From Acidimicrobiia bacterium (lineage in GTDB: Bacteria > Actinomycetota > Acidimicrobiia > IMCC26256 > JAENVU01): DNA of 64,000 nucleotides. The DNA is taken from assembly GCA_025361725.1 (NCBI GenBank), contig JANYJV010000081.1, positions 5,963 through 69,962 of the forward strand. Reading direction: 5' to 3'. Below are positions 51,588 through 64,000 of the stretch, one piece after another. The notes under the pieces were generated by a model. That model did no database searches, was not told where the DNA came from, and saw nothing but the letters and a program-made list of their open reading frames with translations. How positions within the stretch are numbered: position 1 is the stretch's first letter; each line of letters begins with the position of its first letter. A program made the translations under genes and the position numbers.

Positions 51588-52649
51588 GTGCGTCGTGAAC
51601 GATCCGGATATCCGATCGGGCTCGTCGCTGCGCTCCTCTTCGGTGCGAGCGCGCCGTTCTCGAAGCTGCTGCTCGATTCCGTAGGCCCGCAGCTGTTGGC
51701 GGGCCTTCTCTACTTCGGCGCGTTCGTGGCGGTCGCACCCTTCATCGCGACTCGGCCGCAACGCCAGGAGGCGGGGCTCCGGCGCGCAGACGTGCCACGC
51801 CTCGCGATCATCGTCACGACCGGCGGGATTCTTGCCCCGGTCTTGTTGATGATCGGCCTCGAACGGGTCACCGGGGTGGCGGGTTCCCTCCTCCTGAACC
51901 TCGAGGGACCGCTGACGCTGGTCGTCGGTATCGTCGTGATGCACGAGTACCTCGGCCGCCGGGCGGGTTTCGGGACCGTCGCGATCTTCGCCGGTTCTGC
52001 GCTGATCGGTCTTCGCGGAGGTGCCGGGACGATCGACGGGCTCGGGGTGGTGCTGATCGGCCTGGCGTGTCTCGGCTGGGCAATCGACAACAACCTGACG
52101 CAGGCGATCTCCGGCCGAGATCCATTCCAGATTGTGGCGGTCAAGACCGGCGTCGCGGCATCGGTCAACATCTCGTTGGCCCTGGTGCGCGGCGAGACGG
52201 GCGCGTCGTGGGGCATCGTCGGTGGCGCACTCGTGCTCGGCGCATTCGCCTACGGGATCAGCATCCTGCTCGACGCCTACGCGTTGCGATTGCTCGGAGC
52301 GGCGCGTGAAGCGGCGATCTTCGCAACGGCACCCTTCGCGGGGGCGTTGTTGGCGGTCCCGTTGCTCGACGAGTCGTGGAGCGGACTCGATCTGCTCGCG
52401 GCCGGAGTGATCGCCTTCGGTGTGGTGCTCCTCGTCGCCGATCGACACGAACACCTTCATGCGCACGAGCCATTCGAGCACGATCATCGCCATGTGCACG
52501 ACGCCCACCACCAGCACGACCATCCGTCCGGAGTCGACCCGACCCAACCTCACAGTCATCCCCATCGACACGAGCACCTCGTCCACGCACACGCGCACGT
52601 CAGCGACGCCCACCATCGCCACCGCCACCCGGACGGGCCAGCGAGCTAA
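51588..52649 (+). CDS. EamA/DMT-family transporter with 69-residue histidine-rich C-terminal tail
   Basis: It has ten hydrophobic helices in a 5+5 arrangement typical of DMT. The tail from residue 285 (nt 52440) contains 24 His (HEHLHAHEPFEHDHRHVHDAHHQHDH...HSHPHRHEHLVHAHAH...HHRHRH). Confidence 0.8.
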   Translation: MRRERSGYPIGLVAALLFGASAPFSKLLLDSVGPQLLAGLLYFGAFVAVAPFIATRPQRQEAGLRRADVPRLAIIVTTGGILAPVLLMIGLERVTGVAGSLLLNLEGPLTLVVGIVVMHEYLGRRAGFGTVAIFAGSALIGLRGGAGTIDGLGVVLIGLACLGWAIDNNLTQAISGRDPFQIVAVKTGVAASVNISLALVRGETGASWGIVGGALVLGAFAYGISILLDAYALRLLGAAREAAIFATAPFAGALLAVPLLDESWSGLDLLAAGVIAFGVVLLVADRHEHLHAHEPFEHDHRHVHDAHHQHDHPSGVDPTQPHSHPHRHEHLVHAHAHVSDAHHRHRHPDGPAS

Positions 52650-52686
52650 TACCCCCCCCGGGGTAACTTGACTACCCCCGGGGGTA
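52650..52686. promoter_or_regulatory. Two adjacent CsoR-type GC-rich palindromic operators
   Basis: The sites are TACCCCCCCCGGGGTA (52650-52665) and the perfect palindrome TACCCCCGGGGGTA (52673-52686). They lie 17-53 nt upstream of the CsoR-family gene start at 52703. Confidence 0.55.
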
Positions 52687-52702
52687 TCTGTATGATGGCA
52701 GC

Positions 52703-52972
52703 ATGGAACTTCCTCCGGAGGTCGTGTCGGACCTCACCAAGCGTTTGCGTCGAGTTGAGGGTCAGGTCCGCGGCATTCAGCAGATGTTGGCCGAAGAACG
52801 TGACTGTCGCGATGTCGTGACGCAGATCTCGGCGGCCAACAAGGCGCTGGAACAGACCGGCTTCGTCCTGGTGGCAGCCGGGCTCACCTGGTGTCTCGAG
52901 AACCCTGAGCGGTCCGCCGCCGAGGGGTACGAGCTCGCCGACGTCCAGAAGATGTTCACGAAGCTCGCCTGA
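52703..52972 (+). CDS. CsoR/RcnR-family repressor, CstR-like (two Cys, no His ligand)
   Basis: The DUF156 pattern is LTKRLRRVEGQVRGIQQML...RDCRDVVTQISAANKAL. Cys35 and Cys64 are present. The residue four positions before Cys64 is Gly, not the Cu-ligand His. Confidence 0.85.
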   Translation: MELPPEVVSDLTKRLRRVEGQVRGIQQMLAEERDCRDVVTQISAANKALEQTGFVLVAAGLTWCLENPERSAAEGYELADVQKMFTKLA

Positions 52973-53044
52973 GCTCCACCAAGACACGCGCATATCAGTG
53001 TGACCCACCCCGTGGTCGGTCGCGCCCGAAATCGAAAGGAAGCG

Positions 53045-53485
53045 ATGACTGTCGTGACGGACCCGCCGACGCCGCCCGGTACCAGGAATGTCGCTGCCGT
53101 TCCTCAGCGTGGCGCGTTGGCTCGTTTCGGATGAGCGTCGGCCCGACACCCGCGCCGGGTCATATCGATGGGGCTGCTGATCGCCGCGCCTTTGGCCGTG
53201 ACGCTCACGTCGGCGTTGTCGGGCGCGGGATGGGATGCGCAGGGCTCGACGGCGCAACGCGTCCGTGATGAGCTGCGTCGCGAGTTCCCGCAGCTCGACC
53301 CGCACGCCACCACGATCACCTACTGCGCGAGCGGCTACCGCTCGTCGGCCGCGGCCGCGGCCTCGACCCTCCGCGCCCACGGCTTCGGGTCGGTCGCTGA
53401 CCTCGTCGGTGGCTACGACGCCTGGACCGCCGCCATACGTCCCGCAGTGCCCCACGCCGCCGATCGCAACCAAGGAGTACCATCC
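53045..53485 (+). pseudogene. Chimeric remnant: MMPL-type transporter N-terminus (with in-frame TGA) fused to a rhodanese C-terminal fragment
   Basis: The remnant reads ...GALARFG-TGA(53132)-ASARHPRRVISMGLLIAAPLAVTLTSALSGAGWDAQGSTAQRVRDELRREFPQ, which resembles an MMPL N-terminus. From about 53297 the same frame reads DPHATTITYCASGYRSSAAAAASTLRAHGFGSVADLVGGYDAW, a rhodanese active-site loop and C-terminus. Confidence 0.4.
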
Positions 53486-53818
53486 ATGAACCCATTCCAA
53501 CCCGAGGCCAGTCCGACCGAGGCTCATCGACGCGGTTCGGACGTCGTCTTGCTCGACGTTCGCGAGCTCGACGAGTGGTCCGCCGGGCATGCCCCTGGAG
53601 CCCGGCACATGCCGCTTGGAACCGTTGACGCGTCGATGCTCGCCGACGACGCGACCGTGCTCTGCGTGTGCCGATCCGGGGGACGGTCCGCCCTGGCCAC
53701 CGAGTCCCTCAGACAAGCCGGTGTCGACGCTCGCAACGTCACCGGCGGCATGCAGGCCTGGGCCGAGGCAGCCCTCCCGATCGTCACCGACGACGACCGA
53801 CCCGGCACCGTCGCCTGA
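53486..53818 (+). CDS. Single-domain rhodanese sulfurtransferase
   Basis: The ATG is preceded by AAGGAG. Contains LLDVRELDEWSAGHAPGARHMP and the active-site loop CVCRSGGRS. Confidence 0.8.
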   Translation: MNPFQPEASPTEAHRRGSDVVLLDVRELDEWSAGHAPGARHMPLGTVDASMLADDATVLCVCRSGGRSALATESLRQAGVDARNVTGGMQAWAEAALPIVTDDDRPGTVA

Positions 53819-53885
53819 AACCACATGCAACGTCACGAACGCGTGTTCATCAACAATCGGGTCGCTCGCGCGGACGCGGTCGCTC

Positions 53886-54638
53886 ATGCCTGCCTGGCTT
53901 GAGATCACCGCGGTCGGGCTCGCCGTCGGCGTGCTCTTCGGAATCTTCGGTGTCGGGGGATCGAGTTTTGCGACGCCCGCGCTCGGGCTGATCGGCGTGC
54001 CCGGGCTCATCGCCGTCGCTGCGCCACTCCCCGCGACGATTCCAGCTGCGCTTGTCGGCATGGTCGCCTACGTACGACGAGGCCAGGTGGAATGGCCGAT
54101 CGCCCGCTGGTGTATCTACGGCGGGGTCCCGGCGACTGTCGTGGGCGCCGCGATGTCGAGTCGCGTCGGCAGTTCAGGACTCCTCATCGCGTCGGGTGTC
54201 GTGCTCGCTGCGGTCGGCGTACGCCTCATCGTGCCGGCCCGCACGCGAGCGCAGCACATGACATCGCGCCGTCGGCCTGCCCTCGTGATACCCGCGGCCG
54301 CAGTCATCGGCTTCTTCACCGGACTCCTCGCCAACGGCGGTGGCTTCCTGCTCGTTCCGCTCTTCGTCCTGGTGCTCGGCCTCACCATGCCCGAATCCGC
54401 CGGCACCAGCCTCGTCGTCATCGCCGTCCTCTCGATCCCGACGCTGATCACCCATTGGGCACTTGGACATATCGACTGGGCCGTCGCAGGCGCGTTCGCG
54501 CTTGGTTCGATTCCGGGCGCCGCCGCGGGCGCGCAACTCGCGCAACGTCTTCCGGCCGACGCGATGAAGCGCGGGTTCGGCATCATGCTGGTCGGCTTCG
54601 CGATCTACTTCGTCGCCCACCAGGTCAGCGTGGGCTGA
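53886..54638 (+). CDS. TauE/SafE (DUF81) family sulfite/organosulfur exporter
   Basis: Internal ATG (MPAWLEITAVGLAVGVLFGIFGVGGSSF). The 4+4 TM repeat has two GGG-containing segments (NGGGFLLVPL). Confidence 0.85.
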   Translation: MPAWLEITAVGLAVGVLFGIFGVGGSSFATPALGLIGVPGLIAVAAPLPATIPAALVGMVAYVRRGQVEWPIARWCIYGGVPATVVGAAMSSRVGSSGLLIASGVVLAAVGVRLIVPARTRAQHMTSRRRPALVIPAAAVIGFFTGLLANGGGFLLVPLFVLVLGLTMPESAGTSLVVIAVLSIPTLITHWALGHIDWAVAGAFALGSIPGAAAGAQLAQRLPADAMKRGFGIMLVGFAIYFVAHQVSVG

Positions 54639-54749
54639 GCGGCCGAAGCGCCTCGGGAAGAGCATGCCCCCGGGCGCGCGTGATTGATTGGTCGGGGACT
54701 CGGTACCATGAAGGGCCAGAGACCAGCGAACCGCCGAAGGTGGTGCACG

Positions 54750-54941
54750 ATGCCCGTAGTCGTCAGCGAGATCCTCGGGTGGGAAATTTTGGTCCCGCTC
54801 GCTCTCTTGGTGGTGTTCTTTGGTGGTTCCAAGATCCCGCAACTTGCCCGTTCACTCGGCCAAGCACAGAACGAGTTCAAGAAGGGTCTCCGCGACGGCG
54901 CCTCGGACGGCGAGGACAAGCCCGTCGAGCCGCGAGGCTGA
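54750..54941 (+). CDS. tatA: Twin-arginine translocase subunit TatA/E
   Basis: The sequence ILGWEILVPLALLVVFFGGSKIPQLARSLGQAQNEFKKG is the canonical TatA TM plus amphipathic helix. No tatC or tatB is nearby. Confidence 0.8.
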   Translation: MPVVVSEILGWEILVPLALLVVFFGGSKIPQLARSLGQAQNEFKKGLRDGASDGEDKPVEPRG

Positions 54942-54970
54942 CTCCTCGGCCTGAACGCCATTGCAACCCA

Positions 54971-54986
54971 CGCAGCCACGAAGGCT
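54971..54986. repeat. Direct repeat copy 1, CGCAGCCACGAAGGCT (candidate attL)
   Basis: An exact 16-nt match occurs at 57130-57145 in the same orientation. Confidence 0.6.
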
Positions 54987-54989
54987 GCG
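54971..54989 (+). terminator. Hairpin CGCAGCC-ACGAA-GGCTGCG after tatA
   Basis: The stem is 7 bp and it lies 30 nt after the stop. It overlaps direct-repeat copy 1. Confidence 0.4.
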
Positions 54990-55062
54990 GTTGATCACGA
55001 CAAGCCCACCGCTAGAGGCGGCACCTCGTGGTATGTTTATTCAGTAACTTATATACTTACTA

Positions 55063-55560
55063 ATGGAGTGCTCGGTGCCCAGCTACGACAATCTCATCCA
55101 GGTAGCCCGGTCGGTGAAGCGCGACCTTGATCACGACTCGAAGGCCTTCCGGAGCTACGAACGGATGGAGCTCACGAGCCGGCTGCGAACGGTATCCGGC
55201 GAGCCCACGACGCGGATCAAGCTTTCGCTCGGGGCCGATCTCGAACGTGCCCTGAGCGACCAGGGACTCCGTTGCTACCCGCGTCTGACCGAAACGACGA
55301 CCGGCGATCGGATCCGAATCTTTCGCGCTGGGTCCACCGTCGGCGATCTCCTCGACGCGGTGTTGGTGCCTTCCCCAGATCACGATCGCCGGTTGGCGGA
55401 AGCGCTCAAGAAGTTCAAGGGAACGTGGGAATGGGATCGCGGCTCCCATACGGGCGCCTCAGAGACGACAGCGGCCGAACTGTTCGCCAAGCTCCTGCCG
55501 CGTGGAGAACAGCTCGAGTATGTGCGGTCACTCGACGACCCCGACCTCGCGACGACGTGA
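55063..55560 (+). CDS. Hypothetical protein (no recognisable domain)
   Basis: The 165-aa ORF sits directly after the only strongly AT-rich stretch in the window (55031-55062, containing TATACT 6 nt before the ATG). Its stop overlaps the next start (GTGA). Confidence 0.5.
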   Translation: MECSVPSYDNLIQVARSVKRDLDHDSKAFRSYERMELTSRLRTVSGEPTTRIKLSLGADLERALSDQGLRCYPRLTETTTGDRIRIFRAGSTVGDLLDAVLVPSPDHDRRLAEALKKFKGTWEWDRGSHTGASETTAAELFAKLLPRGEQLEYVRSLDDPDLATT

Positions 55561-56006
55561 TCCTGCTCGATGATCATTTGGTGCGCGATCTCGTAGCGGG
55601 TGAGTTGCCAAGCGAAGTCGAGGAACCTGAGGAGGAATTCGCGACGACGAACCTCTGGCTTGTGCGCTTGGCCGGCGCCCTCACGCGGCAGGGGATCTCG
55701 AGCTCGCTATCGGGAAGCATCAAGGGGCTCGGTGAAGCCGACGCGATGCGATTCCGTCAACACTTGACCGAGCGGGTGGAACTCCTGACGGTGTTGCCCA
55801 TGCGGGACATCGTGTGGTCGATTGCCGAACTCCAACAGCGTCACCGAGAAGCCGGTCACCTGCTCAGTACTGCGATGGCCGAGGTCCTTGCGGCCGCGCA
55901 TGCGCTCGGTGCCACGATCGCCGTCGCCGAGGATGACGTTGGGCCAGGGCTCCAAGCCGCGGCCGCGGCTGACGACATCTCGTTCCGCATCGTCGCTCGT
56001 GGATAG
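55557..56006 (+). CDS. Hypothetical protein, weakly PIN-domain-like
   Basis: GTG 55557 opens VILLDDHLVRDL..., and the C-terminus reads AAHALGATIAVAEDD. This loosely resembles PIN motifs (N-terminal LLD; C-terminal A..g..l.T.D). The call is weak. Confidence 0.4.
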   Translation: MILLDDHLVRDLVAGELPSEVEEPEEEFATTNLWLVRLAGALTRQGISSSLSGSIKGLGEADAMRFRQHLTERVELLTVLPMRDIVWSIAELQQRHREAGHLLSTAMAEVLAAAHALGATIAVAEDDVGPGLQAAAAADDISFRIVARG

Positions 56007-56054
56007 CTGAGGCATTCCAGGGCGTCTCACCGCTGTGGCGAGCCCGCATCGTGC

Positions 56055-56403
56055 TCACAACCGTGATGCGGTTGTGGCCACGCTGGCGACTGACGCGCCG
56101 AGCACTTCGTCGACGGCTTCACGGGTCAGGTCATCGCTGTCCGGCCAGAGGTGTGCGTAGGTGTCGAGAGTCTCGCTGGCGCTCGCGTGTCGGAGAGGCG
56201 TCGGACCCAGCCCTTCCCAGGGTGGGCGTGACGTTCGCGATCGGGTGGCTGCCGAAGGTCGGCAAAGCGTGACGCTCCATATGCGACTCGACCTGAGCGC
56301 GGGAGGACGCGACCTTCCGCTGACCGGGCGCGACGCTTGACGCCCCACGCTCAAGGGACATCAATGGACGCCTGAGTGATCGTGCCTCACCCGACCCGCA
56401 CAC
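56055..56403 (-). pseudogene. Tyrosine-recombinase (phage integrase) remnant with large internal deletion and frameshift
   Basis: One frame encodes a core-binding-domain-like segment, AQVESHMERHALPTFGSHPIANVTP. Another encodes the extreme C-terminus, LRHASASETLDTYAHLWPDSDD (catalytic Tyr motif). The catalytic R...HxxR region is missing. Confidence 0.6.
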
Positions 56404-56974
56404 CTTCGGCGATCTGCTGAAGTTGCGCGTCGTCGAATCTGAGTCCGGTAACGGACATCACGGCGTCTTGATCCACAACCCAGAAGAGCGACCGCCAACC
56501 GAGGGGATCGGAGTACGCGATGCCGGGCTGATCATGGACTCGAGTATCCGTCGGCGGCGGAAGCGAGATCCCTGCTTGTTGGCTCTGAGTGACGAGATCG
56601 GCAGCGAGCGCACGCTTCTCGGCGAGCACCCGGACTCCAACACCGTGCCCTGTCGTCAGGTTCGTCGTGAGGGTCGGGGCGAGCCCAGAGGCTGAAAACC
56701 ACCGGATGTGCGCAATCCCGCCGGTCGGAGTTGGTAGCTCCTTCCTCCGAATCTCAACGAGAGACGCCGGTAGTCGAGCCGGCTCGTAGGTGCTGACACC
56801 CGAATCGGCCTTGGCAGTTGGTGCCGAGGGCAAAGGGTTGGTTGCGGCCGTCGGCTCCACCCGGCCGACTTTGGCCGCCGTTTCCGTCCCGCCACAGGAG
56901 CCGACGAGAAACCCGGTGACGACGACCGCGGCCAAGAGCGGGCCGCGCCTCGATGCGCAGAGATGTTGCGGCAT
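56387..56974 (-). CDS. Hypothetical lipoprotein
   Basis: It has a signal peptide with the lipobox FLVGSC. No other recognisable domain is present. Confidence 0.55.
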   Translation of the reverse strand: MPQHLCASRRGPLLAAVVVTGFLVGSCGGTETAAKVGRVEPTAATNPLPSAPTAKADSGVSTYEPARLPASLVEIRRKELPTPTGGIAHIRWFSASGLAPTLTTNLTTGHGVGVRVLAEKRALAADLVTQSQQAGISLPPPTDTRVHDQPGIAYSDPLGWRSLFWVVDQDAVMSVTGLRFDDAQLQQIAEGVRVG

Positions 56975-57129
56975 TCCAACCGCCCTTCCCGTGAGGCCGG
57001 AGCGTCACGAGCGTATTGGACAAAGGTCTTTGGCGGATAGTGCGGGTCTTTCGTGTCTCTTGACGCCACGTCCGTCGAAGCGAAGCGCGGACCCGGCGTC
57101 GGCGGAAATCCCTTCGGGGCCTTGATGCC

Positions 57130-57145
57130 CGCAGCCACGAAGGCT
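57130..57145. repeat. Direct repeat copy 2, CGCAGCCACGAAGGCT (candidate attR)
   Basis: An exact 16-nt match to 54971-54986. It lies in the gap between the lipoprotein start and the MFS stop. Confidence 0.6.
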
Positions 57146-57170
57146 CTCTCTGCAATCACAGGAGCAGCGA

Positions 57171-58460
57171 TCACTCCACCGAACTGATCGGGGATTTCGC
57201 CGGTGGAGGATGGGTTTCGTACATCCGAACTGCGACGACCAGGCCCGATGCAGCGGTGAGCGCAGCGACCGTCCAGATCGCCGCTTCGATGGAGACGAGG
57301 TCGGCGACGATGCCGGCGAGGAGGGCGCCGACGGCGAACCCGGCGTCGCGCCAGAGTCGGTAGATGCCAACGGCTCGCGCCCGCCAGGCGGGATGTGCGA
57401 CATCGCCGATCGCAGCCAGCAGGGTCGGGTAGACCATCGCAGTTCCGGCACCGAGGACCGCGGCCCCGACCGCCCACGCAGTGAAGCCTGTCGTCATCGC
57501 GATCCAGCCGATGGCGACGGCTTGGGTGAGCATGCCTCCGGCGATGAGTCGTTTCCGTCCGATGCGGTCCGAGAGCCCACCGGTGTAGAGCTGGCCGAGG
57601 CCCCAGATCGCGGGGTAGATCGCAGCGAGGAGGCCGATGCGGCCGATGGAAAGCCCGGCGCGGGCGAAGAAGATCGGAAACAAGCCCCACGCGAGGCCGT
57701 CGTTGAGGTTGTTCACCAGACCGGCCTGCGAGCACGACGACAATGCCTTCTCGCGAAACGACGTCAGCCTGAAGACCGCGCCTGTCGATAGCCCTTCGCG
57801 GAGTCCATCGTGCGCGGCGGTGTGGTTCGCGGCTTCGTGACGCGCGTGCCCTCGGGTCTCGCGAACGAAGAGCGTCGACAGGCCGAGTCCGAGGCCCGCG
57901 TACGCGACTCCGAGAAAGAACGGTGCGGGTCGCAGTCCGTGTTGTTGTGCGATGTAGCCGGTCGCGAACGCGGTGACCGCGACCGCGCCGTACCCGGCGG
58001 CTTCGTTGAGTCCCATCGCGAAGCCGCGTCGCGCGGGACCGACCAGATCGATCTTCATGATCACGGTCGTTGACCAGGTCAGGCCCTGGTTGATACCCAG
58101 CAAGACGTTGGCGAACACGATCCAACCCCACGACGGGGCCCACATGAGAAGAAAGGGGATCGGCACGCCGACGATCCAACCGGCGACGAGCACGGGCTTG
58201 CGACCGTACCGATCCGACAGGGTGCCGGCGAAGAAGTTCGTCGCCGCCTTCACTGCGCCGAACGCGACGATGAACGTGAGGGTGGCGGTGAACGCGTTGA
58301 GGTGAAACTCGCGCGTCGCGAGGAGGGGGAGGACCGTGCGTTCTTGGCCGATCATCCCGCCGACGAGGGCGTTGACGCCGACGAGCAGTGAGAACTGCGC
58401 GAGGTTCTCGCGTAGCCCGAGACGGATCGGCGTCCCGCGCTCGGCTGCGTTGATGGTCAT
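57171..58460 (-). CDS. MFS transporter
   Basis: The internal ATG overlaps the upstream stop (ATGA). It has 12 TM helices and the MFS motif A-like segments GTLSDRYGRKP and GGLSDRIGRKR. Confidence 0.85.
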   Translation of the reverse strand: MTINAAERGTPIRLGLRENLAQFSLLVGVNALVGGMIGQERTVLPLLATREFHLNAFTATLTFIVAFGAVKAATNFFAGTLSDRYGRKPVLVAGWIVGVPIPFLLMWAPSWGWIVFANVLLGINQGLTWSTTVIMKIDLVGPARRGFAMGLNEAAGYGAVAVTAFATGYIAQQHGLRPAPFFLGVAYAGLGLGLSTLFVRETRGHARHEAANHTAAHDGLREGLSTGAVFRLTSFREKALSSCSQAGLVNNLNDGLAWGLFPIFFARAGLSIGRIGLLAAIYPAIWGLGQLYTGGLSDRIGRKRLIAGGMLTQAVAIGWIAMTTGFTAWAVGAAVLGAGTAMVYPTLLAAIGDVAHPAWRARAVGIYRLWRDAGFAVGALLAGIVADLVSIEAAIWTVAALTAASGLVVAVRMYETHPPPAKSPISSVE

Positions 58461-59803
58461 TCGAGGGCGCGGCCGGTGGCACTTGCCCAATCTTCGGGCC
58501 CTCCCGCGAGCACGGACACCGCGGTGTGTCCATGCGCGCTGAGAATCGACGCGGCGGTCATGGCGCGTTCTCCGTGACCGCACATCACCGTGACCGGTCC
58601 ATCGGGGAGCGTGCTTGCGGAGCGGTGCATCTGGCCGAGTTCGATGTTGATGGCGTCGGGTAGGTGGCCGGCGAGGTATTCGTTGTCTTGGCGGACGTCG
58701 ATGACCGTGGACGCGATCGCGCTCGGGTCGACGAGTTCGATTCGTTCCTCGGCGATGCCGGCCGCTCGTGAGGCGTCCATGCCGCCGTCCAGTTCACCGG
58801 CGAGGTTCTCGTAGCCGACGTTCAGGCATTGGCGAACGAGCTCGGCGCGATTCTGATCGGCGTTGAGGACGAACACGAGAGGTCGGTCGGGTTCGACGAG
58901 CCAGCCGAGCCAACTCGCGAACACGGGTCGGAGTTCGATCGACAGCGCGCCGGGGAGGCGACCGGCCGCGAAGTCTTCGATCGGACGGACGTCGACGAGT
59001 GCCGCGCCCTTGGCGATCAGCGCATCGAGGTCGGCGATGCTGACGCGCTCGAGCGGAGGCGGGGTGCGATAGAGACGTGGTCCGCGCCGGTTCACTTCGG
59101 GCAGACGTGAGAAGTAACTCGGGAACGAGCCGAAGCCGGCGGTGAGTTGCGCGACGAAGGTGTTCTCGTCGCGTTCGCTCAACAGGGGATTGGTCGCTCG
59201 TTCGTGTCCGATGGTGGTCGTGCGCGCGGATGCACCCGGTGCGGAACAGAATGAGCCGGCTCCGTGGGTGGGGTAGACGGCAAGATCCTCCGGCAGGGTG
59301 AGGATCTCGTCGCGGAGCGCGCGGAATAGCTGGCGGGTGAGGTCGTCGCGCGGCGCCGGGCCGAGGAGGTCGGTCCGACCGACCGCTCCGACCATGAGCG
59401 AACCACCGCTGAACAACGCGGTCGGCTGTCCGCGCTCACAGAGGAGGTAGGCGAGGTGGTCCGGTGTGTGTCCCGGGGTCGCGATCGCGCGCAACACCAC
59501 GTCGTCGCGGAGTTGAATCTCGTCGCCGGCCGCGACGTCGCAGTGCCCAACCTCCAGGTGAGCACCCTGCGAGGCGAGAAACGTCGCACCTCGTGCCGCA
59601 AGTTCGGGACTGCCGGAGACATAGTCCGCGTGAGAGTGCGTATCGGCGGTGAACGCGATTTCGAGGCCGCGCGCACGCGCCGCGGCAAGGTGATCCTCGG
59701 GCAGGCGGGGTGGGTCGACGACCAGCGCGCGGCCGTCGCCCAGATCGACGAGATACGACGAGTGACCAAGGCCCTCGTCGACGAACGCGACGATGTCGAT
59801 CAT
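58457..59803 (-). CDS. MBL-fold hydrolase fused to two rhodanese domains (CstB/Blh-like persulfide dioxygenase-sulfurtransferase)
   Basis: The internal ATG (MIDIVAFVDEGLGHSSYLV) overlaps the upstream stop. The metallo-beta-lactamase motif is TADTHSHADY, with ATPGHTPDH. The two rhodanese domains are ALVDVRPIEDFAAGRLPGA (no Cys loop) and VIDVRQDNEYLAGHLPDA, which has the active-site loop VMCGHGERA. Confidence 0.85.
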   Translation of the reverse strand: MIDIVAFVDEGLGHSSYLVDLGDGRALVVDPPRLPEDHLAAARARGLEIAFTADTHSHADYVSGSPELAARGATFLASQGAHLEVGHCDVAAGDEIQLRDDVVLRAIATPGHTPDHLAYLLCERGQPTALFSGGSLMVGAVGRTDLLGPAPRDDLTRQLFRALRDEILTLPEDLAVYPTHGAGSFCSAPGASARTTTIGHERATNPLLSERDENTFVAQLTAGFGSFPSYFSRLPEVNRRGPRLYRTPPPLERVSIADLDALIAKGAALVDVRPIEDFAAGRLPGALSIELRPVFASWLGWLVEPDRPLVFVLNADQNRAELVRQCLNVGYENLAGELDGGMDASRAAGIAEERIELVDPSAIASTVIDVRQDNEYLAGHLPDAINIELGQMHRSASTLPDGPVTVMCGHGERAMTAASILSAHGHTAVSVLAGGPEDWASATGRALE

Positions 59804-60261
59804 CGACGCGGGACCGTCGTCGCCAATGAGGCGAGTGCGCTGAGTGATTCGGGCAGTTCGTGCCGGCGCAGCTGGCGACCGCGTACTTTGACGAGGAGCA
59901 CTCTTCGCCAGAACGTGGCGGGATGCAGTCCAAGCGACACCGTGACGGCGCATCCGTCAGGCGCGTGGTCGACCTCCCAGGTCCAGTCGGCGTAAGACGG
60001 ATTGCCGTCGTCGGTTTGCGAACGGTACATGAACCGCCGCATCGAGGCGTCGAGTTCGACCACGGTCGAGCGGCTTGGCCACGTCTGGCCGAGCGCGGAG
60101 AGTTCGACGACCCATTGACACCCGGTCGTCAGCTGTTCGGGCGCCTCGACGAACCGGACGATCTTGTGGTTCCACTCGGGAAGGCGCCGGGGTTCGGTGA
60201 GAAGTCGGAACACGTCGTCGGGATCGGCGGGGATCGTCCGGGTTGCGGTGTAGTCGCGCAT
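59800..60261 (-). CDS. SRPBCC (START/polyketide-cyclase-like) family protein
   Basis: The sequence RTIPADPDDVFRLLTEPRRLPEWN is a typical SRPBCC N-terminus. It is the first gene of the three-gene minus-strand operon. Confidence 0.7.
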   Translation of the reverse strand: MRDYTATRTIPADPDDVFRLLTEPRRLPEWNHKIVRFVEAPEQLTTGCQWVVELSALGQTWPSRSTVVELDASMRRFMYRSQTDDGNPSYADWTWEVDHAPDGCAVTVSLGLHPATFWRRVLLVKVRGRQLRRHELPESLSALASLATTVPRR

Positions 60262-60309
60262 AAGGCCTCCTCGCGGTTGGTGACGACATCTTCCTCGAAC
60301 TCACGCGTA

Positions 60310-60339
60310 TTGTCAAGTAGTTGCTTGAAGACTTGACAA
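60310..60339. promoter_or_regulatory. Inverted repeat TTGTCAAGT-N12-ACTTGACAA in divergent promoter region
   Basis: It has perfect 9-bp arms. It lies between the SRPBCC start (60261, minus) and the ArsR-rhodanese start (about 60360, plus). Confidence 0.45.
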
Positions 60340-60359
60340 AGAGTGAGCTTGATCGCACA

Positions 60360-61040
60360 ATGGCACCCATGAGTGATCGAGAAGCCAAAGCCGCTCTCTT
60401 CGACGGGTTCGCCGAAGTCGCGAAGGCGTTGGCCAGCGGGCGCCGGGCCGAGATCGTCGATCTACTGGCCCAGGGTGAGCGCTCGGTTGACGCAATCGCC
60501 GGTGAGATCGACCAGAGCGTTGCCAACACGTCGCATCATCTCCAGGCTCTGACCCGAGCCGGGTTGCTGTCGAGTCGACGCGAAGGAACCCGCGTGTTCT
60601 ATGCGTTGGCGAGCGCGCGCGTTGGCGAGCTCTGGGCTGCGGTACGAGACGTCGCTGCAGAACACGTCGCGGGTATCGATCGGCTCGCGGCCGCATATGT
60701 GGGGGATCGCGGAGATCTCGAGGCGATCACCCGCGATGAACTCGCGAGACGTCTCCGGCGCCGCAATGTCGTGGTGCTCGATGTTCGACCGACCGCCGAG
60801 TACGCCGCCGGTCACATTCGCGGCGCGCGTTCGCTGCCTCCGGACGAGGTACGCGCGCGCTTGCGCACCATCCCCAAGGACGCTGAGATCGTGGCGTACT
60901 GCCGCGGGCCGTACTGCGTCTACGCCGACGACGTCGTCCGTGCCCTGCGCCGCCGGGGGATCCACGCCCGCCGCCTCGAAGACGGGTTCCCTGAATGGAA
61001 CCGCGCGGGCCTCCCTATAGCAGTCGGCACAGGAGGCTGA
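60360..61040 (+). CDS. ArsR/SmtB-family regulator fused to a C-terminal rhodanese domain
   Basis: The HTH is RRAEIVDLLAQGERSVDAIAGEIDQSVANTSHHLQALTRAGLL. The rhodanese domain is VLDVRPTAEYAAGHIRGA, with the loop AYCRGPYC. Start candidates are 60321 (TTG), 60360 and 60369. Confidence 0.8.
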   Translation: MAPMSDREAKAALFDGFAEVAKALASGRRAEIVDLLAQGERSVDAIAGEIDQSVANTSHHLQALTRAGLLSSRREGTRVFYALASARVGELWAAVRDVAAEHVAGIDRLAAAYVGDRGDLEAITRDELARRLRRRNVVVLDVRPTAEYAAGHIRGARSLPPDEVRARLRTIPKDAEIVAYCRGPYCVYADDVVRALRRRGIHARRLEDGFPEWNRAGLPIAVGTGG

Positions 61041-61043
61041 AAG

Positions 61044-61826
61044 ATGACCGAGGACCTCGTGGTCGACGTCGAAACGCTGCGCGAACAAGTGCGCGAGAAG
61101 TACCGAGAAGTCGCGGTCGCGCCGCACGCCGAGTACCACTTCCACGCCGGCCGTCCACTCGCGCGCAAGCTCGGCTACGACGCTGCCGTTGTCGATGCGT
61201 TGCCCGATCCGGCGGTTGAGTCCTTCGCCGGAGTCGGCAATCCGTTCTCGCTGCGCACGATCGTCCCGGGGGAGCGCGTCGTCGACGTCGGCTCGGGTGC
61301 CGGCTTCGATTCGTTCGTCGCGGCTGCATTTGTTGGTGCCGACGGACGCGTCGTCGGGATCGACATGACCGCCGCGATGCTCGCCAAATCGCGTTCGACC
61401 GCCACCCAAATGGGTCACACGCACGTCGAGTTCCGCGAGGGCTTCGCCGAAGCGCTACCAGTCGAGGACGGCTGGGCCGATGTTGTCATCTCCAACGGCG
61501 TGATCAACCTCTGCGCCGACAAACGAGCGGTGTTCGGCGAACTCAACCGCGTGCTCCGCCCCGGAGGCATCCTGCAGTTCGCCGACATCGCCAACGGCCG
61601 CCCGGTCCCGCCAGAGGCCTTACGCGACATCGACCTCTGGACCGGCTGAATCGCCGGAGGGCTGCCCCGTGCGGGCTGGCAGAAGATGCTCGAAGACGCA
61701 GGCTTCACGGACGTGCAGATCGGCCCACCGGTCGACACTTTCGCCGGCGCAACCGGTGAAGAGAAGGCACACGCCTATGAAGTGTTCGGTTACGCGTTTC
61801 TCGCCCGCAAACCCGAGAGGGACTGA
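61044..61826 (+). CDS. ArsM/UbiE-like SAM methyltransferase with in-frame TGA (61647-61649) at the conserved Cys position; conventional ORF ends at 61649
   Basis: Motif I is VVDVGSGAGFD, with GIDMT, VVISNGVINL and LRPGGIL. Then DLWTG-TGA-IAGGLPRAGWQKMLEDAGFTDVQIG continues in the same frame to TGA 61824-61826. Confidence 0.7.
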
Positions 61827-61828
61827 GC

Positions 61829-62060
61829 ATGACCACCGCGAAGATCGGACTCGTCCTCGACTGTGCGAACCCCGAGCAACTCGCCGAGTTCTGGGCGCCT
61901 GCACTGGGCTACGTGTCGCTGGGCAGTGCCGGGAACTACGTCGTGCTCGTCGACGAAGCGAACGCGCAGCCCAGCTGCTGCTCCAGCGAGTGAGAGACCG
62001 GGGCACCCGAGAGCGGCTGAGCGGCTCCGCGACAGCCCACATTCAGGTAACTACGAAAGG
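61829..62060 (+). pseudogene. Glyoxalase-like (VOC) domain N-terminal remnant, frameshifted
   Basis: The frame reads MTTAKIGLVLDCANPEQLAEFWAPALGYVSLGSAGNYVVLVDEANAQP, then stops at 61991. The next frame continues QLLLQRV.... The domain is not completed before the next gene. Confidence 0.4.
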
Positions 62061-62070
62061 AAGCGATTCG

Positions 62071-62883
62071 ATGAATCCGAACAAGGCACTTTGGGAGAAG
62101 GGCGATTTTACTCGCATCGCCGCGAGCATGCGCGAGAGCGGCGAGGCGCTCGTCAAGGACTTGAACATCACCAGCGGGCTCAAGGTCTTGGATCTCGGAT
62201 GCGGTGATGGAACGACAGCAATACCGGCTGCTCGTCTCGGCGCCGACGTGTTGGGCGTCGATATCGCGAGCAACTTGGTCGCGGCCGGGAACCGACGCGC
62301 CGAGGCCGAGGGGTTGACGAACTGCCGGTTCCAAGAAGGGGACGCGTCGGACTTGCACGATCTGGGGGATGACTCGTTCGACCTGGTCGTCAGCATGTTC
62401 GGAGCGATGTTCGCACCGAAGCCGTTCGACGTGGCCAAGGAAATGGCGCGCGTGACGCGGCCCGGTGGCCGGATCGTCATGGGTAACTGGATTCCCGGCG
62501 ATCCGACGCTCGTCGCGCAGATCTTGAAGATCAGTGGCGCGTACGCACCGCCCCCGCCCGAAGGCTTCATCAGCCCCGTGACGTGGGGCGTCGAAGCCAA
62601 CGTCGTCGAACGCTTCACCGGCGCGGGAGTACCGGAAGAGAAGATCTCGTTCGCCCGCGACACATACAACTTCAACTACCCGGAGCCACCGTCCGCCCTT
62701 CTCGCTGCATTCCGCACCTACTACGGGCCGACGATGAATGCGTTCGAAGCGGCGGACGCGAACGGTCGCACCGCCGATCTGCAGAACGAGTTGGAAGCGC
62801 TCTTCAACAGCCAGAACGCGAGCCCGAGCAACGACACCACCTCCATCCCGGCAACGTTCCTCCGGGTCACGGTCGCTCCCTGA
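62071..62883 (+). CDS. Class I SAM-dependent methyltransferase
   Basis: The ATG is preceded by GAAAGGAAG. Contains VLDLGCGDGT (motif I), DLVVSMFGAMF and TRPGGRIVMGNW. Confidence 0.8.
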   Translation: MNPNKALWEKGDFTRIAASMRESGEALVKDLNITSGLKVLDLGCGDGTTAIPAARLGADVLGVDIASNLVAAGNRRAEAEGLTNCRFQEGDASDLHDLGDDSFDLVVSMFGAMFAPKPFDVAKEMARVTRPGGRIVMGNWIPGDPTLVAQILKISGAYAPPPPEGFISPVTWGVEANVVERFTGAGVPEEKISFARDTYNFNYPEPPSALLAAFRTYYGPTMNAFEAADANGRTADLQNELEALFNSQNASPSNDTTSIPATFLRVTVAP

Positions 62884-62896
62884 GGTCGCGGACACG

Positions 62897-63460
62897 ATGC
62901 CTCCGGATCGGGTGACGAACGATCAGCAGCAGCACTGGTCCAGCGTGTTCGCTGACAACCCGGACATGTACGGGACGCATCCGAGCGAGCCCGGGTGTTT
63001 CGCGGTTGACGTGTTTCTACGCGACGCATCCCGCGACGTGCTCGAACTCGGTGCCGGGCATGGACGTGACACGATCGCGTTCCTGAAGGTTGGTCTGCGC
63101 GTCACGGCGCTCGACTACGCCGCTGACGCCCTTCGCTGCATTCGGGAGAGAGCCGTTGGGCTTGGAGTGGCGGAGACATTGACAACGGTTGTTCATGACA
63201 TTCGCGAGCCGCTGCCGCTGACCGCCGAAAGCGTCGACGCGGTCTATTCGCACATGTTGTTCAACATGGCGCTCAGCACGCGGGAACTTGACGCGCTCAC
63301 CGCCGAAGTGCATCGCGTGCTGCGGTCTGGTGGGTTGCACATCTACACGGTTCGCCACACCGGAGATCCGCACTACGAGACTGGCGTCTCGCGAGGCGAC
63401 GCGATGTTCGAACACGGCGGGTTTGTGGTCCACTTCTTCGACCGGCCGTTGGTCGATCGG
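62897..63460 (+). CDS. SAM-dependent methyltransferase (TehB-like size), 3' end apparently replaced by IS sequence
   Basis: Contains VLELGAGHGRD (motif I) and LRSGGLHIYTV. After ...VHFFDRPLVDR the frame reads on, antisense through the transposase gene, to 63922. The true end is uncertain by about 15 nt. Confidence 0.6.
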
Positions 63461-64000
63461 AGGATGTCCCACTCGTTGTTGAAGTGGGGTGACGGTCGGT
63501 GTTCATCTCATGCGACGTTGGCAGTCTCGCATGCGGGTGAAATCGATGCAGCGTGTGCGGCGAGCGCGGCAGCGAGTTTCGGCATTTGGGTGTGGCCGCG
63601 CAGCCGCCGGTATTTGCGTTCGGCGTTGAGGATCCCCGCAGCGCACCACCGTTTGATCATGGTGCCGTCCCGCCACCGTTTCACGTTCCGGGTCGTGTCT
63701 CGTGCGACCGAGATCGTCGACTCGATCGGGTTGGTGGTGGTGAGGGTCGCTGCGAGCATTCCAGTGATCCCGAGGCGGCGGACGGTGAACATCTCGTCGA
63801 GTCCTTCGAGCATCGAGCTGGCGGCGTCGGGATACGCGAGGCGGATCGACGCGGCGAGTGCGTTCACTTGCCGGCGACCCGCGTCGACGTTCTCGTTCGC
63901 GAACGCGGCTGCGAGTTTCTGATCGATCCGACGCTGCCGGTCTTTGGGCAGGTGGCCGGTCAATGCGTCGCTTATGCAACGTGCACCGCTGGATGAGGGC
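63461..64000. mobile_element. IS256-family insertion sequence, partial (runs off the right edge)
   Basis: It contains the 3' part of a mutator-type transposase gene. The left boundary is inferred only from where the methyltransferase similarity stops. The terminal inverted repeat was not identified. Confidence 0.5.
63508..64000 (-). CDS. IS256-family (mutator-type) transposase, C-terminal part
   Basis: The sequence ...MFTVRRLGITGMLAATLTTTNPIESTISVARDTTRNVKRWRDGTMIKRW matches the conserved C-terminal TNxIES...V.RW pattern of IS256 transposases. The frame is open to the window edge. Confidence 0.75.
   Translation of the reverse strand, partial: PSSSGARCISDALTGHLPKDRQRRIDQKLAAAFANENVDAGRRQVNALAASIRLAYPDAASSMLEGLDEMFTVRRLGITGMLAATLTTTNPIESTISVARDTTRNVKRWRDGTMIKRWCAAGILNAERKYRRLRGHTQMPKLAAALAAHAASISPACETANVA

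Follow-up and report, generated by a model that had tools for sequence, protein, structure and literature searches.

A candidate selenocysteine codon conserved in ArsM-like methyltransferase genes of Acidimicrobiia and other bacteria

Results

The stretch of DNA analysed here (referred to as the window) comprises 64,000 nucleotides (nt) of an Acidimicrobiia bacterium (assembly GCA_025361725.1, contig JANYJV010000081.1, positions 5,963 to 69,962). It contains a gene for an ArsM-like S-adenosylmethionine (SAM)-dependent methyltransferase with an in-frame TGA, which is very likely decoded as selenocysteine (Sec). The reading frame starts with the ATG at 61044; 201 codons are followed by the TGA (61647-61649) in the context DLWTG-[TGA]-IAGGL and by 58 open codons up to the stop codon TGA at 61824-61826. 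An initial annotation, made from the sequence alone, had described the TGA and the 58 open codons in the same way and had proposed the TGA as a candidate Sec codon. The read-through product, with Cys placed at the TGA, matches Pfam Methyltransf_31/11/25, which are class I SAM methyltransferase domains. A regulator gene is located directly upstream, and its stop codon (61038-61040) ends 3 nt before the ATG, which suggests that the regulator and the methyltransferase gene are translationally coupled.

Table 1. Positions of the methyltransferase gene, its sequence elements and the neighbouring genes in the window.
Feature	Position	Strand	Basis
ArsM-like SAM-dependent methyltransferase gene, predicted selenoprotein	61044..61826	+	frame; Pfam, NCBIfam and PDB matches; open, constrained frame in relatives
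UGA predicted to be read as Sec, residue 202; corresponds to Cys224 of CmArsM	61647..61649	+	TGA in 80/80 relatives, Cys in distant homologues
GGAGG ribosome-binding site, 8 nt before the ATG	61032..61036	+	read from the sequence
Candidate bacterial Sec insertion sequence (SECIS) hairpin: 7-position stem 61659-61665/61671-61677, 5-nt loop 61666-61670	61659..61677	+	RNAalifold consensus
Longer alternative drawing of the hairpin: outer stem 61653-61657/61676-61680, inner stem 61665-61667/61673-61675	61653..61680	+	pairing across relatives
ArsR/SmtB-type helix-turn-helix (HTH)-rhodanese fusion, likely regulator of the pair	60360..61040	+	Pfam HTH_5 and Rhodanese; NCBIfam HTH_metalloreg above cutoff
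SRPBCC (Polyketide_cyc2) protein, between the two units	59800..60261	-	Pfam
Metallo-beta-lactamase (MBL) fold and rhodanese domains, persulfide-dioxygenase-like, divergent	58457..59803	-	Pfam
MFS transporter, co-directional with the MBL-rhodanese gene	57171..58460	-	Pfam MFS_1

An independent assembly (GCA_043724125.1, contig JAYSNC010000413.1) is 99.98% identical to the window over positions 51781-63684 and carries the same TGA; a base-calling error, for which the initial annotation had advised a check, is therefore unlikely. As relatives we used the 80 best-matching loci from GTDB contigs with one genome per species, each of which belongs to another GTDB species. The aligned codon is TGA in all 80 relatives and TGC or TGT in none of them, and it is therefore no private mutation. 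Most of the TGA carriers are Acidimicrobiia (Ilumatobacteraceae, Acidimicrobiaceae and further lineages), the remaining ones are other Actinomycetota, Rhodospirillales and other Alphaproteobacteria, and Deltaproteobacteria. One carrier is an isolate, Enhydrobacter aerosaccus ATCC 27094 (Alphaproteobacteria), in which the gene occupies L073 10001-10765 and reads DLWTA-U-IAGGLPC around the TGA. A search of about 5.8 billion proteins gave 63 proteins of exactly 201 amino acids (aa) among the best 120 (82-99% identity); all 63 end at one shared residue, and full-length proteins appeared only at 63-72% identity. Public gene calls, including the annotations of metagenome-assembled genomes (MAGs) deposited at NCBI, give a 201-aa "methyltransferase domain-containing protein" where the true product would have about 260 aa and contain Sec. 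The same truncation error would be present in dozens of species of the Acidimicrobiia, a class for which the use of Sec has barely been described.

The frame downstream of the TGA is open and constrained. Stop codons are absent from codons +1 to +53 in all 80 sequences. The ratio of non-synonymous to synonymous substitution rates (dN/dS), calculated against the window, is 0.18 downstream of the TGA (beyond the hairpin described below) and 0.17 upstream of it, and the downstream variation is found mostly at third codon positions. Between the window and its nearest relative (L002, 88% identical), 9 codons of the downstream segment differ synonymously and 3 non-synonymously. In a confident AlphaFold model of a Cys orthologue (P0013; predicted local distance difference test score, pLDDT, 86.7; predicted template modelling score, pTM, 0.89), one helix and two central-sheet strands (221-225 and 246-254; beta-6 and beta-7) follow the Cys/Sec position, which suggests that a 201-aa product would have an incomplete Rossmann-like fold. 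From the open frame, the dN/dS values, the differences to L002 and the model of P0013 we conclude that the segment 3' of the TGA is translated. Of 80 sequences (the window and 79 relatives), 69 likewise have TGA as the true stop codon; therefore, the local context must separate the two UGAs, as a SECIS does.

Homologues that are full-length and more distant (46 sequences) have Cys at the aligned position, and such Cys homologues reach 63-69% identity; in the DNA of one of them (L084) the aligned codon is TGC. Alignment with the PDB structures 5eg5 and 5evj, counted on chain 5eg5, places the TGA at Cys224 of CmArsM, as the initial annotation had stated. In a neighbour-joining tree the 80 TGA forms fall into one clade (the Sec clade). 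Only four non-TGA sequences are located inside this clade; one has Cys, one Leu and two Trp, all by codons that differ from TGA at a single nucleotide, and such one-step escapes suggest lineages that are leaving Sec decoding. One of the four is Blastococcus deserti (L086 6001-6783, JBJJTM010000009.1), which has TGG (Trp) for TGA and a nearly unchanged hairpin sequence. The other three are metagenomic proteins with Trp (P0015), Leu (P0012) and Cys (P0013) at the position of the TGA. In one relative (L039) a paralogous methyltransferase gene (1768-2757) lies directly upstream of the main one and has an in-frame TGA of its own at 2530 (AAWAG-U-VAGAL). This paralogue likewise lacks the equivalents of Cys72 and Cys174 (GVGNP and SNGVLNLS), and Sec forms without the other ArsM cysteines may thus constitute a wider group.

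Genes for Sec insertion are found next to the methyltransferase gene in several relatives. The 80 related loci contain only 15 tRNA genes, four of which encode tRNA-Sec. All four tRNAs have a length of 95-96 nt, the anticodon UCA and a long extra arm, and none of their genes is more than about 2 kb away from that of the methyltransferase. They occur in two Acidimicrobiia (L027 and L054), in a member of the Sporichthyaceae (L044) and in a member of the Rhodospirillaceae (L071). The Rhodospirillaceae MAG has the gene order selA, selB, membrane protein gene, tRNA-Sec, methyltransferase and selD (L071 5171-11866). In the Sporichthyaceae MAG the methyltransferase gene is followed by a small DsrE-like open reading frame (ORF), tRNA-Sec and selD (L044 1515-3994). 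In addition, complete Sec machinery has been reported throughout the Actinomarinales, another order of the Acidimicrobiia (2026 preprint). We infer that the genome carrying the window has the Sec machinery as well.

The RNA 3' of the UGA was analysed with RNAalifold using 79 aligned segments of 48 nt, in which the U of the UGA is column 1. The consensus is a hairpin that begins 10 nt after the UGA, with columns 13-19 paired with columns 25-31 (Table 1), and the loop G at column 23 (61669) is invariant among the aligned segments. Across the relatives, 88% of the cells pair in this register. In the longer register, the one that the initial annotation had drawn, 92% of the cells pair and no pair has changed on both sides. 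Synonymous variation is suppressed here: across codons 206-211 the codon entropy at sites of four- and six-fold degeneracy is 0.66, compared with 1.46 elsewhere, and unusual codons are fixed in the hairpin region (CGT for 56 of 57 Arg, CTG for 78 of 80 Leu, and GGG for Gly). The encoded peptide GGLPRAGWQ is nearly invariant in the TGA forms and variable in the Cys forms (LPTDDWEAV, LSRDGWRQV and others), and in the Cys form L084 only the 5' side of the hairpin is left, its 3' half being absent. A compensatory change was seen at one pair only, a U-A in L080. The presence of a constrained RNA element 3' of the UGA is well supported by these alignments, and we infer that the putative element acts as a SECIS.

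The SECIS of E. coli fdhF is known for a similar spacing after the UGA and for a G-U in its loop, and it illustrates what SelB-binding elements look like. The candidate element resembles fdhF-type SECIS in being a short hairpin inside the coding region about 10 nt after the UGA and in having an apical-loop G-U (columns 23-24) 22-23 nt from the U of the UGA. It differs from them in that it has no sequence similarity to them and no Rfam model. According to this model, SelB would be recruited by the hairpin 61659-61677 and would deliver Sec-tRNA(Sec) to the UGA at 61647-61649, and the same mRNA would terminate at the ordinary UGA at 61824-61826.

For comparison with protein families the NCBIfam models were scored with U replaced by C. 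The best matches are ArsM-type models, all below their cutoffs. Three of the matched models are curated "exception" models for selenoproteins with an ArsM domain; these fusion models score 193-225 bits against cutoffs of 460-575 (NF041537 225 bits, NF047649 206 bits). The ArsM model itself (PRK11873/NF008823) gives 215.1 bits, below its cutoff of 263. The best sequence matches in the PDB are ArsM structures, and the best fold matches are CrArsM, CmArsM and human AS3MT (template modelling score 0.6-0.7, about 30% identity, 237-251 of 259 columns). On the PDB alignment Val64 (GVGNP) corresponds to Cys72 and Gly152 (SNGVINLC) to Cys174 of CmArsM, so the statement of the initial annotation that the other ArsM cysteines are absent was correct. 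According to the family alignments Val and Gly are present at these two sites throughout the clade, and the sole conserved thiol or selenol positions are Sec202 (80/80) and Cys157 (78/80). Judged by these alignments and scores, the predicted protein stands outside ArsM proper on two counts, the NF008823 cutoff and the set of three As(III)-related cysteines. With canonical ArsM and AS3MT (4FS8, 4FR0, 6CX6; 5EVJ; 8XT7) it shares the N-terminal and the Rossmann-like methyltransferase domains and Sec202 at the Cys224 site. Unlike them, it has Val for Cys72, Gly for Cys174 and the extra conserved Cys157, and it lacks the C-terminal domain of about 100 residues. The product is in all likelihood about 260 residues long, with a single ArsM-like methyltransferase domain and one Sec.

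The genes around the methyltransferase gene (Table 1) recur in part of the relatives. Of the 65 relatives with enough upstream DNA, 26 have the ArsR-rhodanese gene immediately 5' of the methyltransferase gene in the same orientation, and 41 have it anywhere in the locus. When at least 6 kb were available on both sides (32 relatives), the MBL-rhodanese gene was found within 6.5 kb in 14, the MFS gene within 6.5 kb in 15 and the SRPBCC gene in only three. A Cys orthologue is adjoined by the same ArsR-rhodanese regulator and SRPBCC genes. The genes arsB, acr3 and arsC were not seen beside the methyltransferase gene. The predicted functions of the neighbours in the window are sulfur-type rather than arsenic-type.

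The regulator has the active-site loop CRGPYC, and its NCBIfam matches to rhodanese-related (seleno)proteins, TsoR and BigR are weak and far below the cutoffs. A further sulfur-type unit (52703-54941, plus strand) lies 7 kb upstream and consists of genes for a CsoR-type repressor (52703-52972), a double-rhodanese protein (53168-53818), a TauE sulfite exporter (53886-54638) and TatA (54750-54941); it is preceded by an EamA transporter gene (51783-52649).

Discussion

The suggestion that the TGA is a Sec codon has been strengthened by its presence in all 80 relatives, by the constrained downstream frame, by Cys in distant homologues and by the linked tRNA-Sec and sel genes in relatives. The comparison of orthologues proposed in the initial annotation thus gave TGA throughout these 80 relatives, without a single TGC or TGT, and a conserved hairpin downstream; it decides between Sec and a private nonsense mutation. 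We consider it highly probable that the gene is an intact selenoprotein gene in which the UGA at 61647-61649 is decoded as Sec.

Several results weigh against this interpretation or against parts of it. The 64-kb window contains no tRNA genes, and a tblastn search of the window with E. coli SelA, SelB and SelD gave no match. Since the 80 loci are the top-scoring relatives, the conservation of the TGA applies to the whole Sec clade and says nothing about the wider family. For both registers of the hairpin, covariation is not above the shuffle controls, because the element hardly varies. The hairpin drawn in the initial annotation can indeed be formed, with 92% of its pairs; the second register, 61659-61677, is the one chosen by RNAalifold, and as both fit about equally well the data do not separate them. 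The hairpin region of the window folds no better than shuffled sequence (z = +0.88). No relevant Rfam family was found either in the whole window at gathering thresholds or in 61600-61760 at E up to 10, where the only match of this permissive scan was a chance miRNA on the opposite strand. The initial annotation had called the hairpin only moderately convincing, which was fair, since it is conserved, yet neither unusually stable nor marked by significant covariation. Of the covariance analysis proposed there, conservation and suppressed synonymous change were borne out and covariation above shuffled controls was not. Finally, the gene neighbourhood is common to only about 40-60% of the relatives.

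One alternative to Sec decoding is that the gene belongs to the Sec clade and that this genome has lost the Sec machinery, so that the UGA terminates translation and the gene is dead or recently orphaned. The one-nucleotide escapes from TGA within the clade would fit this, since they show that lineages abandon Sec decoding: Blastococcus deserti has TGG, and the three metagenomic proteins have Leu, Trp and Cys. Against it stand the intact hairpin and downstream frame, with 9 synonymous versus 3 non-synonymous changes relative to the closest relative, and the Acidimicrobiia relatives that encode tRNA-Sec beside the gene, and we regard such a loss as unlikely.

Recoding to another amino acid, by near-cognate read-through as Trp or Cys or by a reassigned code, is very improbable. 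Two members of the clade do have a Trp codon in place of the TGA, but homologues carry Cys rather than Trp at the aligned residue, and in relatives the gene has tRNA-Sec and sel genes as physical neighbours. The code has not been reassigned, because TGA serves as the stop codon of this gene in 69 of 80 sequences and of neighbouring genes as well. Equally improbable is a pseudogene that arose in this strain by a recent TGC/TGT-to-TGA nonsense mutation of a Cys-type methyltransferase, an alternative raised in the initial annotation: the adjoining gene remnant described below, about 200 nt short compared with L002, and the lack of Sec machinery within the window could be taken in its favour, but the same TGA in the 80 closest species in effect refutes it, the downstream frame is intact and constrained also against the nearest relative, and the independent assembly agrees on the base call, so that we rejected it.

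Selenoproteins of the ArsM type are known. Lists of prokaryotic selenoproteins have included "arsenite S-adenosylmethyltransferase" (PRK11873) from Fomenko et al. (2007, Science) onwards, the Global Ocean Sampling (GOS) survey contained eight selenoprotein sequences of this family (Zhang and Gladyshev, 2008), and the genome survey of Peng et al. (2016) gives 39 and 41 for it, which we read as organisms and genes. A 2026 review (PMC13188914) lists UxxG as the motif of the family. The protein described here resembles this family in its single Sec, the motif U-I-A-G, the PRK11873-like domain and the presence of Cys in homologues; the listed representative of the family is WP_011987699.1. It differs in scoring below the NF008823 cutoff, in lacking the other ArsM cysteines and the C-terminal domain, and in its carriers, which are mostly Acidimicrobiia.

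Fusion selenoproteins of this kind were reportedly described by Haft and Tolstoy in 2025 under the models NF041537 (ArsM/AhpD), NF041536 (ArsM/DUF2284) and NF047649 (MTase/UXPK-star). Their methyltransferase domain is colinear with residues 8-226 of the window protein (profile positions 9-227) and has the same UxxG Sec. Unlike these proteins, which have a second domain with further Sec residues, the window protein is stand-alone. The papers on BSepDB and deep-Sep do not mention the ArsM-type selenoprotein family. We also compared papers on the H2S/methanethiol methyltransferases MddH and MddM, and discarded them as relatives, as no link beyond the shared UbiE-type fold was found. As ArsM-type selenoproteins have already been catalogued, the gene belongs to a known kind and does not define a new class. 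Less documented so far are the spread of these genes in the Acidimicrobiia, the systematic truncation in annotations, and the non-arsenic look of the active site and the neighbours.

Arsenite is probably not the substrate, since the protein lacks two of the three ArsM cysteines and the neighbours are of the sulfur/persulfide type. The initial annotation had already doubted arsenite as substrate, and on account of the two cysteines this doubt holds. The opposing explanation is that the enzyme does methylate arsenite and that Sec, being more nucleophilic, makes up for the missing cysteines; this appears rather unlikely to us. In its favour, ArsM and AS3MT rank first among the sequence, profile and fold matches, such proteins are catalogued in the literature as "arsenite S-adenosylmethyltransferase" selenoproteins, and the regulator is of the ArsR family. 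On the other side, the equivalents of Cys72 and Cys174 are Val and Gly in the whole clade, the PRK11873 score of 215 is below the cutoff of 263, arsB, acr3 and arsC were not seen beside the gene, and the neighbours are of rhodanese, persulfide-dioxygenase-like and sulfite-exporter types.

The neighbourhood resembles BigR/Blh sulfide-detoxification operons in having an ArsR-family regulator, an MBL-rhodanese fusion and membrane exporters, with CsoR, rhodanese and TauE genes 7 kb upstream. Unlike in BigR/Blh operons, the regulator itself is fused to a rhodanese domain, and the equivalog models score far below their cutoffs (BigR 36.8 vs 155; Blh 21.7 vs 625). To our knowledge, the BigR operon as described does not include a methyltransferase. 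A sulfide, persulfide or selenide-type substrate would be more likely than arsenite; drawn from the cysteines and the neighbourhood, this is the weakest step of the argument. For methyl transfer, a soft chalcogen or metalloid would be bound by Sec202, perhaps together with Cys157. All that the clade has retained of the ArsM metal site is the Sec and one other cysteine; it often occurs with persulfide-type genes and sometimes with selC/selD. As a tentative and rather doubtful proposal, the clade could represent not an arsenic enzyme but a Sec-dependent methyltransferase for reduced chalcogens (sulfide, persulfide or selenide) that is controlled by the rhodanese-fused ArsR, acts alongside the persulfide-dioxygenase-like enzyme and in some bacteria is part of a selenium-utilisation locus between tRNA-Sec and selD. 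If this placement is true, the protein would become a candidate for a role in the handling or detoxification of selenide or sulfane sulfur. The clade is a tractable candidate for a chalcogen-methylating selenoenzyme, with Enhydrobacter aerosaccus ATCC 27094 as a cultured carrier.

The window was also scanned for further coding frames interrupted by TGA, using GC content by codon position. A first filter based only on third codon positions was too noisy; with a stricter one, this gene, ordinary gene ends and same-frame neighbours were the only frames obtained in the window. A search of a plasmid collection found only distant ArsM-like genes with less than 45% identity, which are uninformative on annotation status.

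Directly 3' of the predicted selenoprotein gene lies a 54-aa remnant of a VOC/glyoxalase-like gene (61829-61993, plus strand), and here the window is about 200 nt shorter than the closest relative (L002 7834-8111). The remnant is also present in the independent assembly L083, and it is therefore due to a real deletion and not to an assembly error. Two more genes for SAM-dependent methyltransferases follow (62071-62883 and 62897-63682, both plus strand), so that three are located in a row; the first of these two also matches the TehB (tellurite resistance) and CMAS profiles. An ORF on the minus strand (63508-63963) adjoins the 3' end of the last of these three genes; by eye, its product resembles the C-terminal portion of a transposase, and it may mark a mobile-element boundary near the end of the window.

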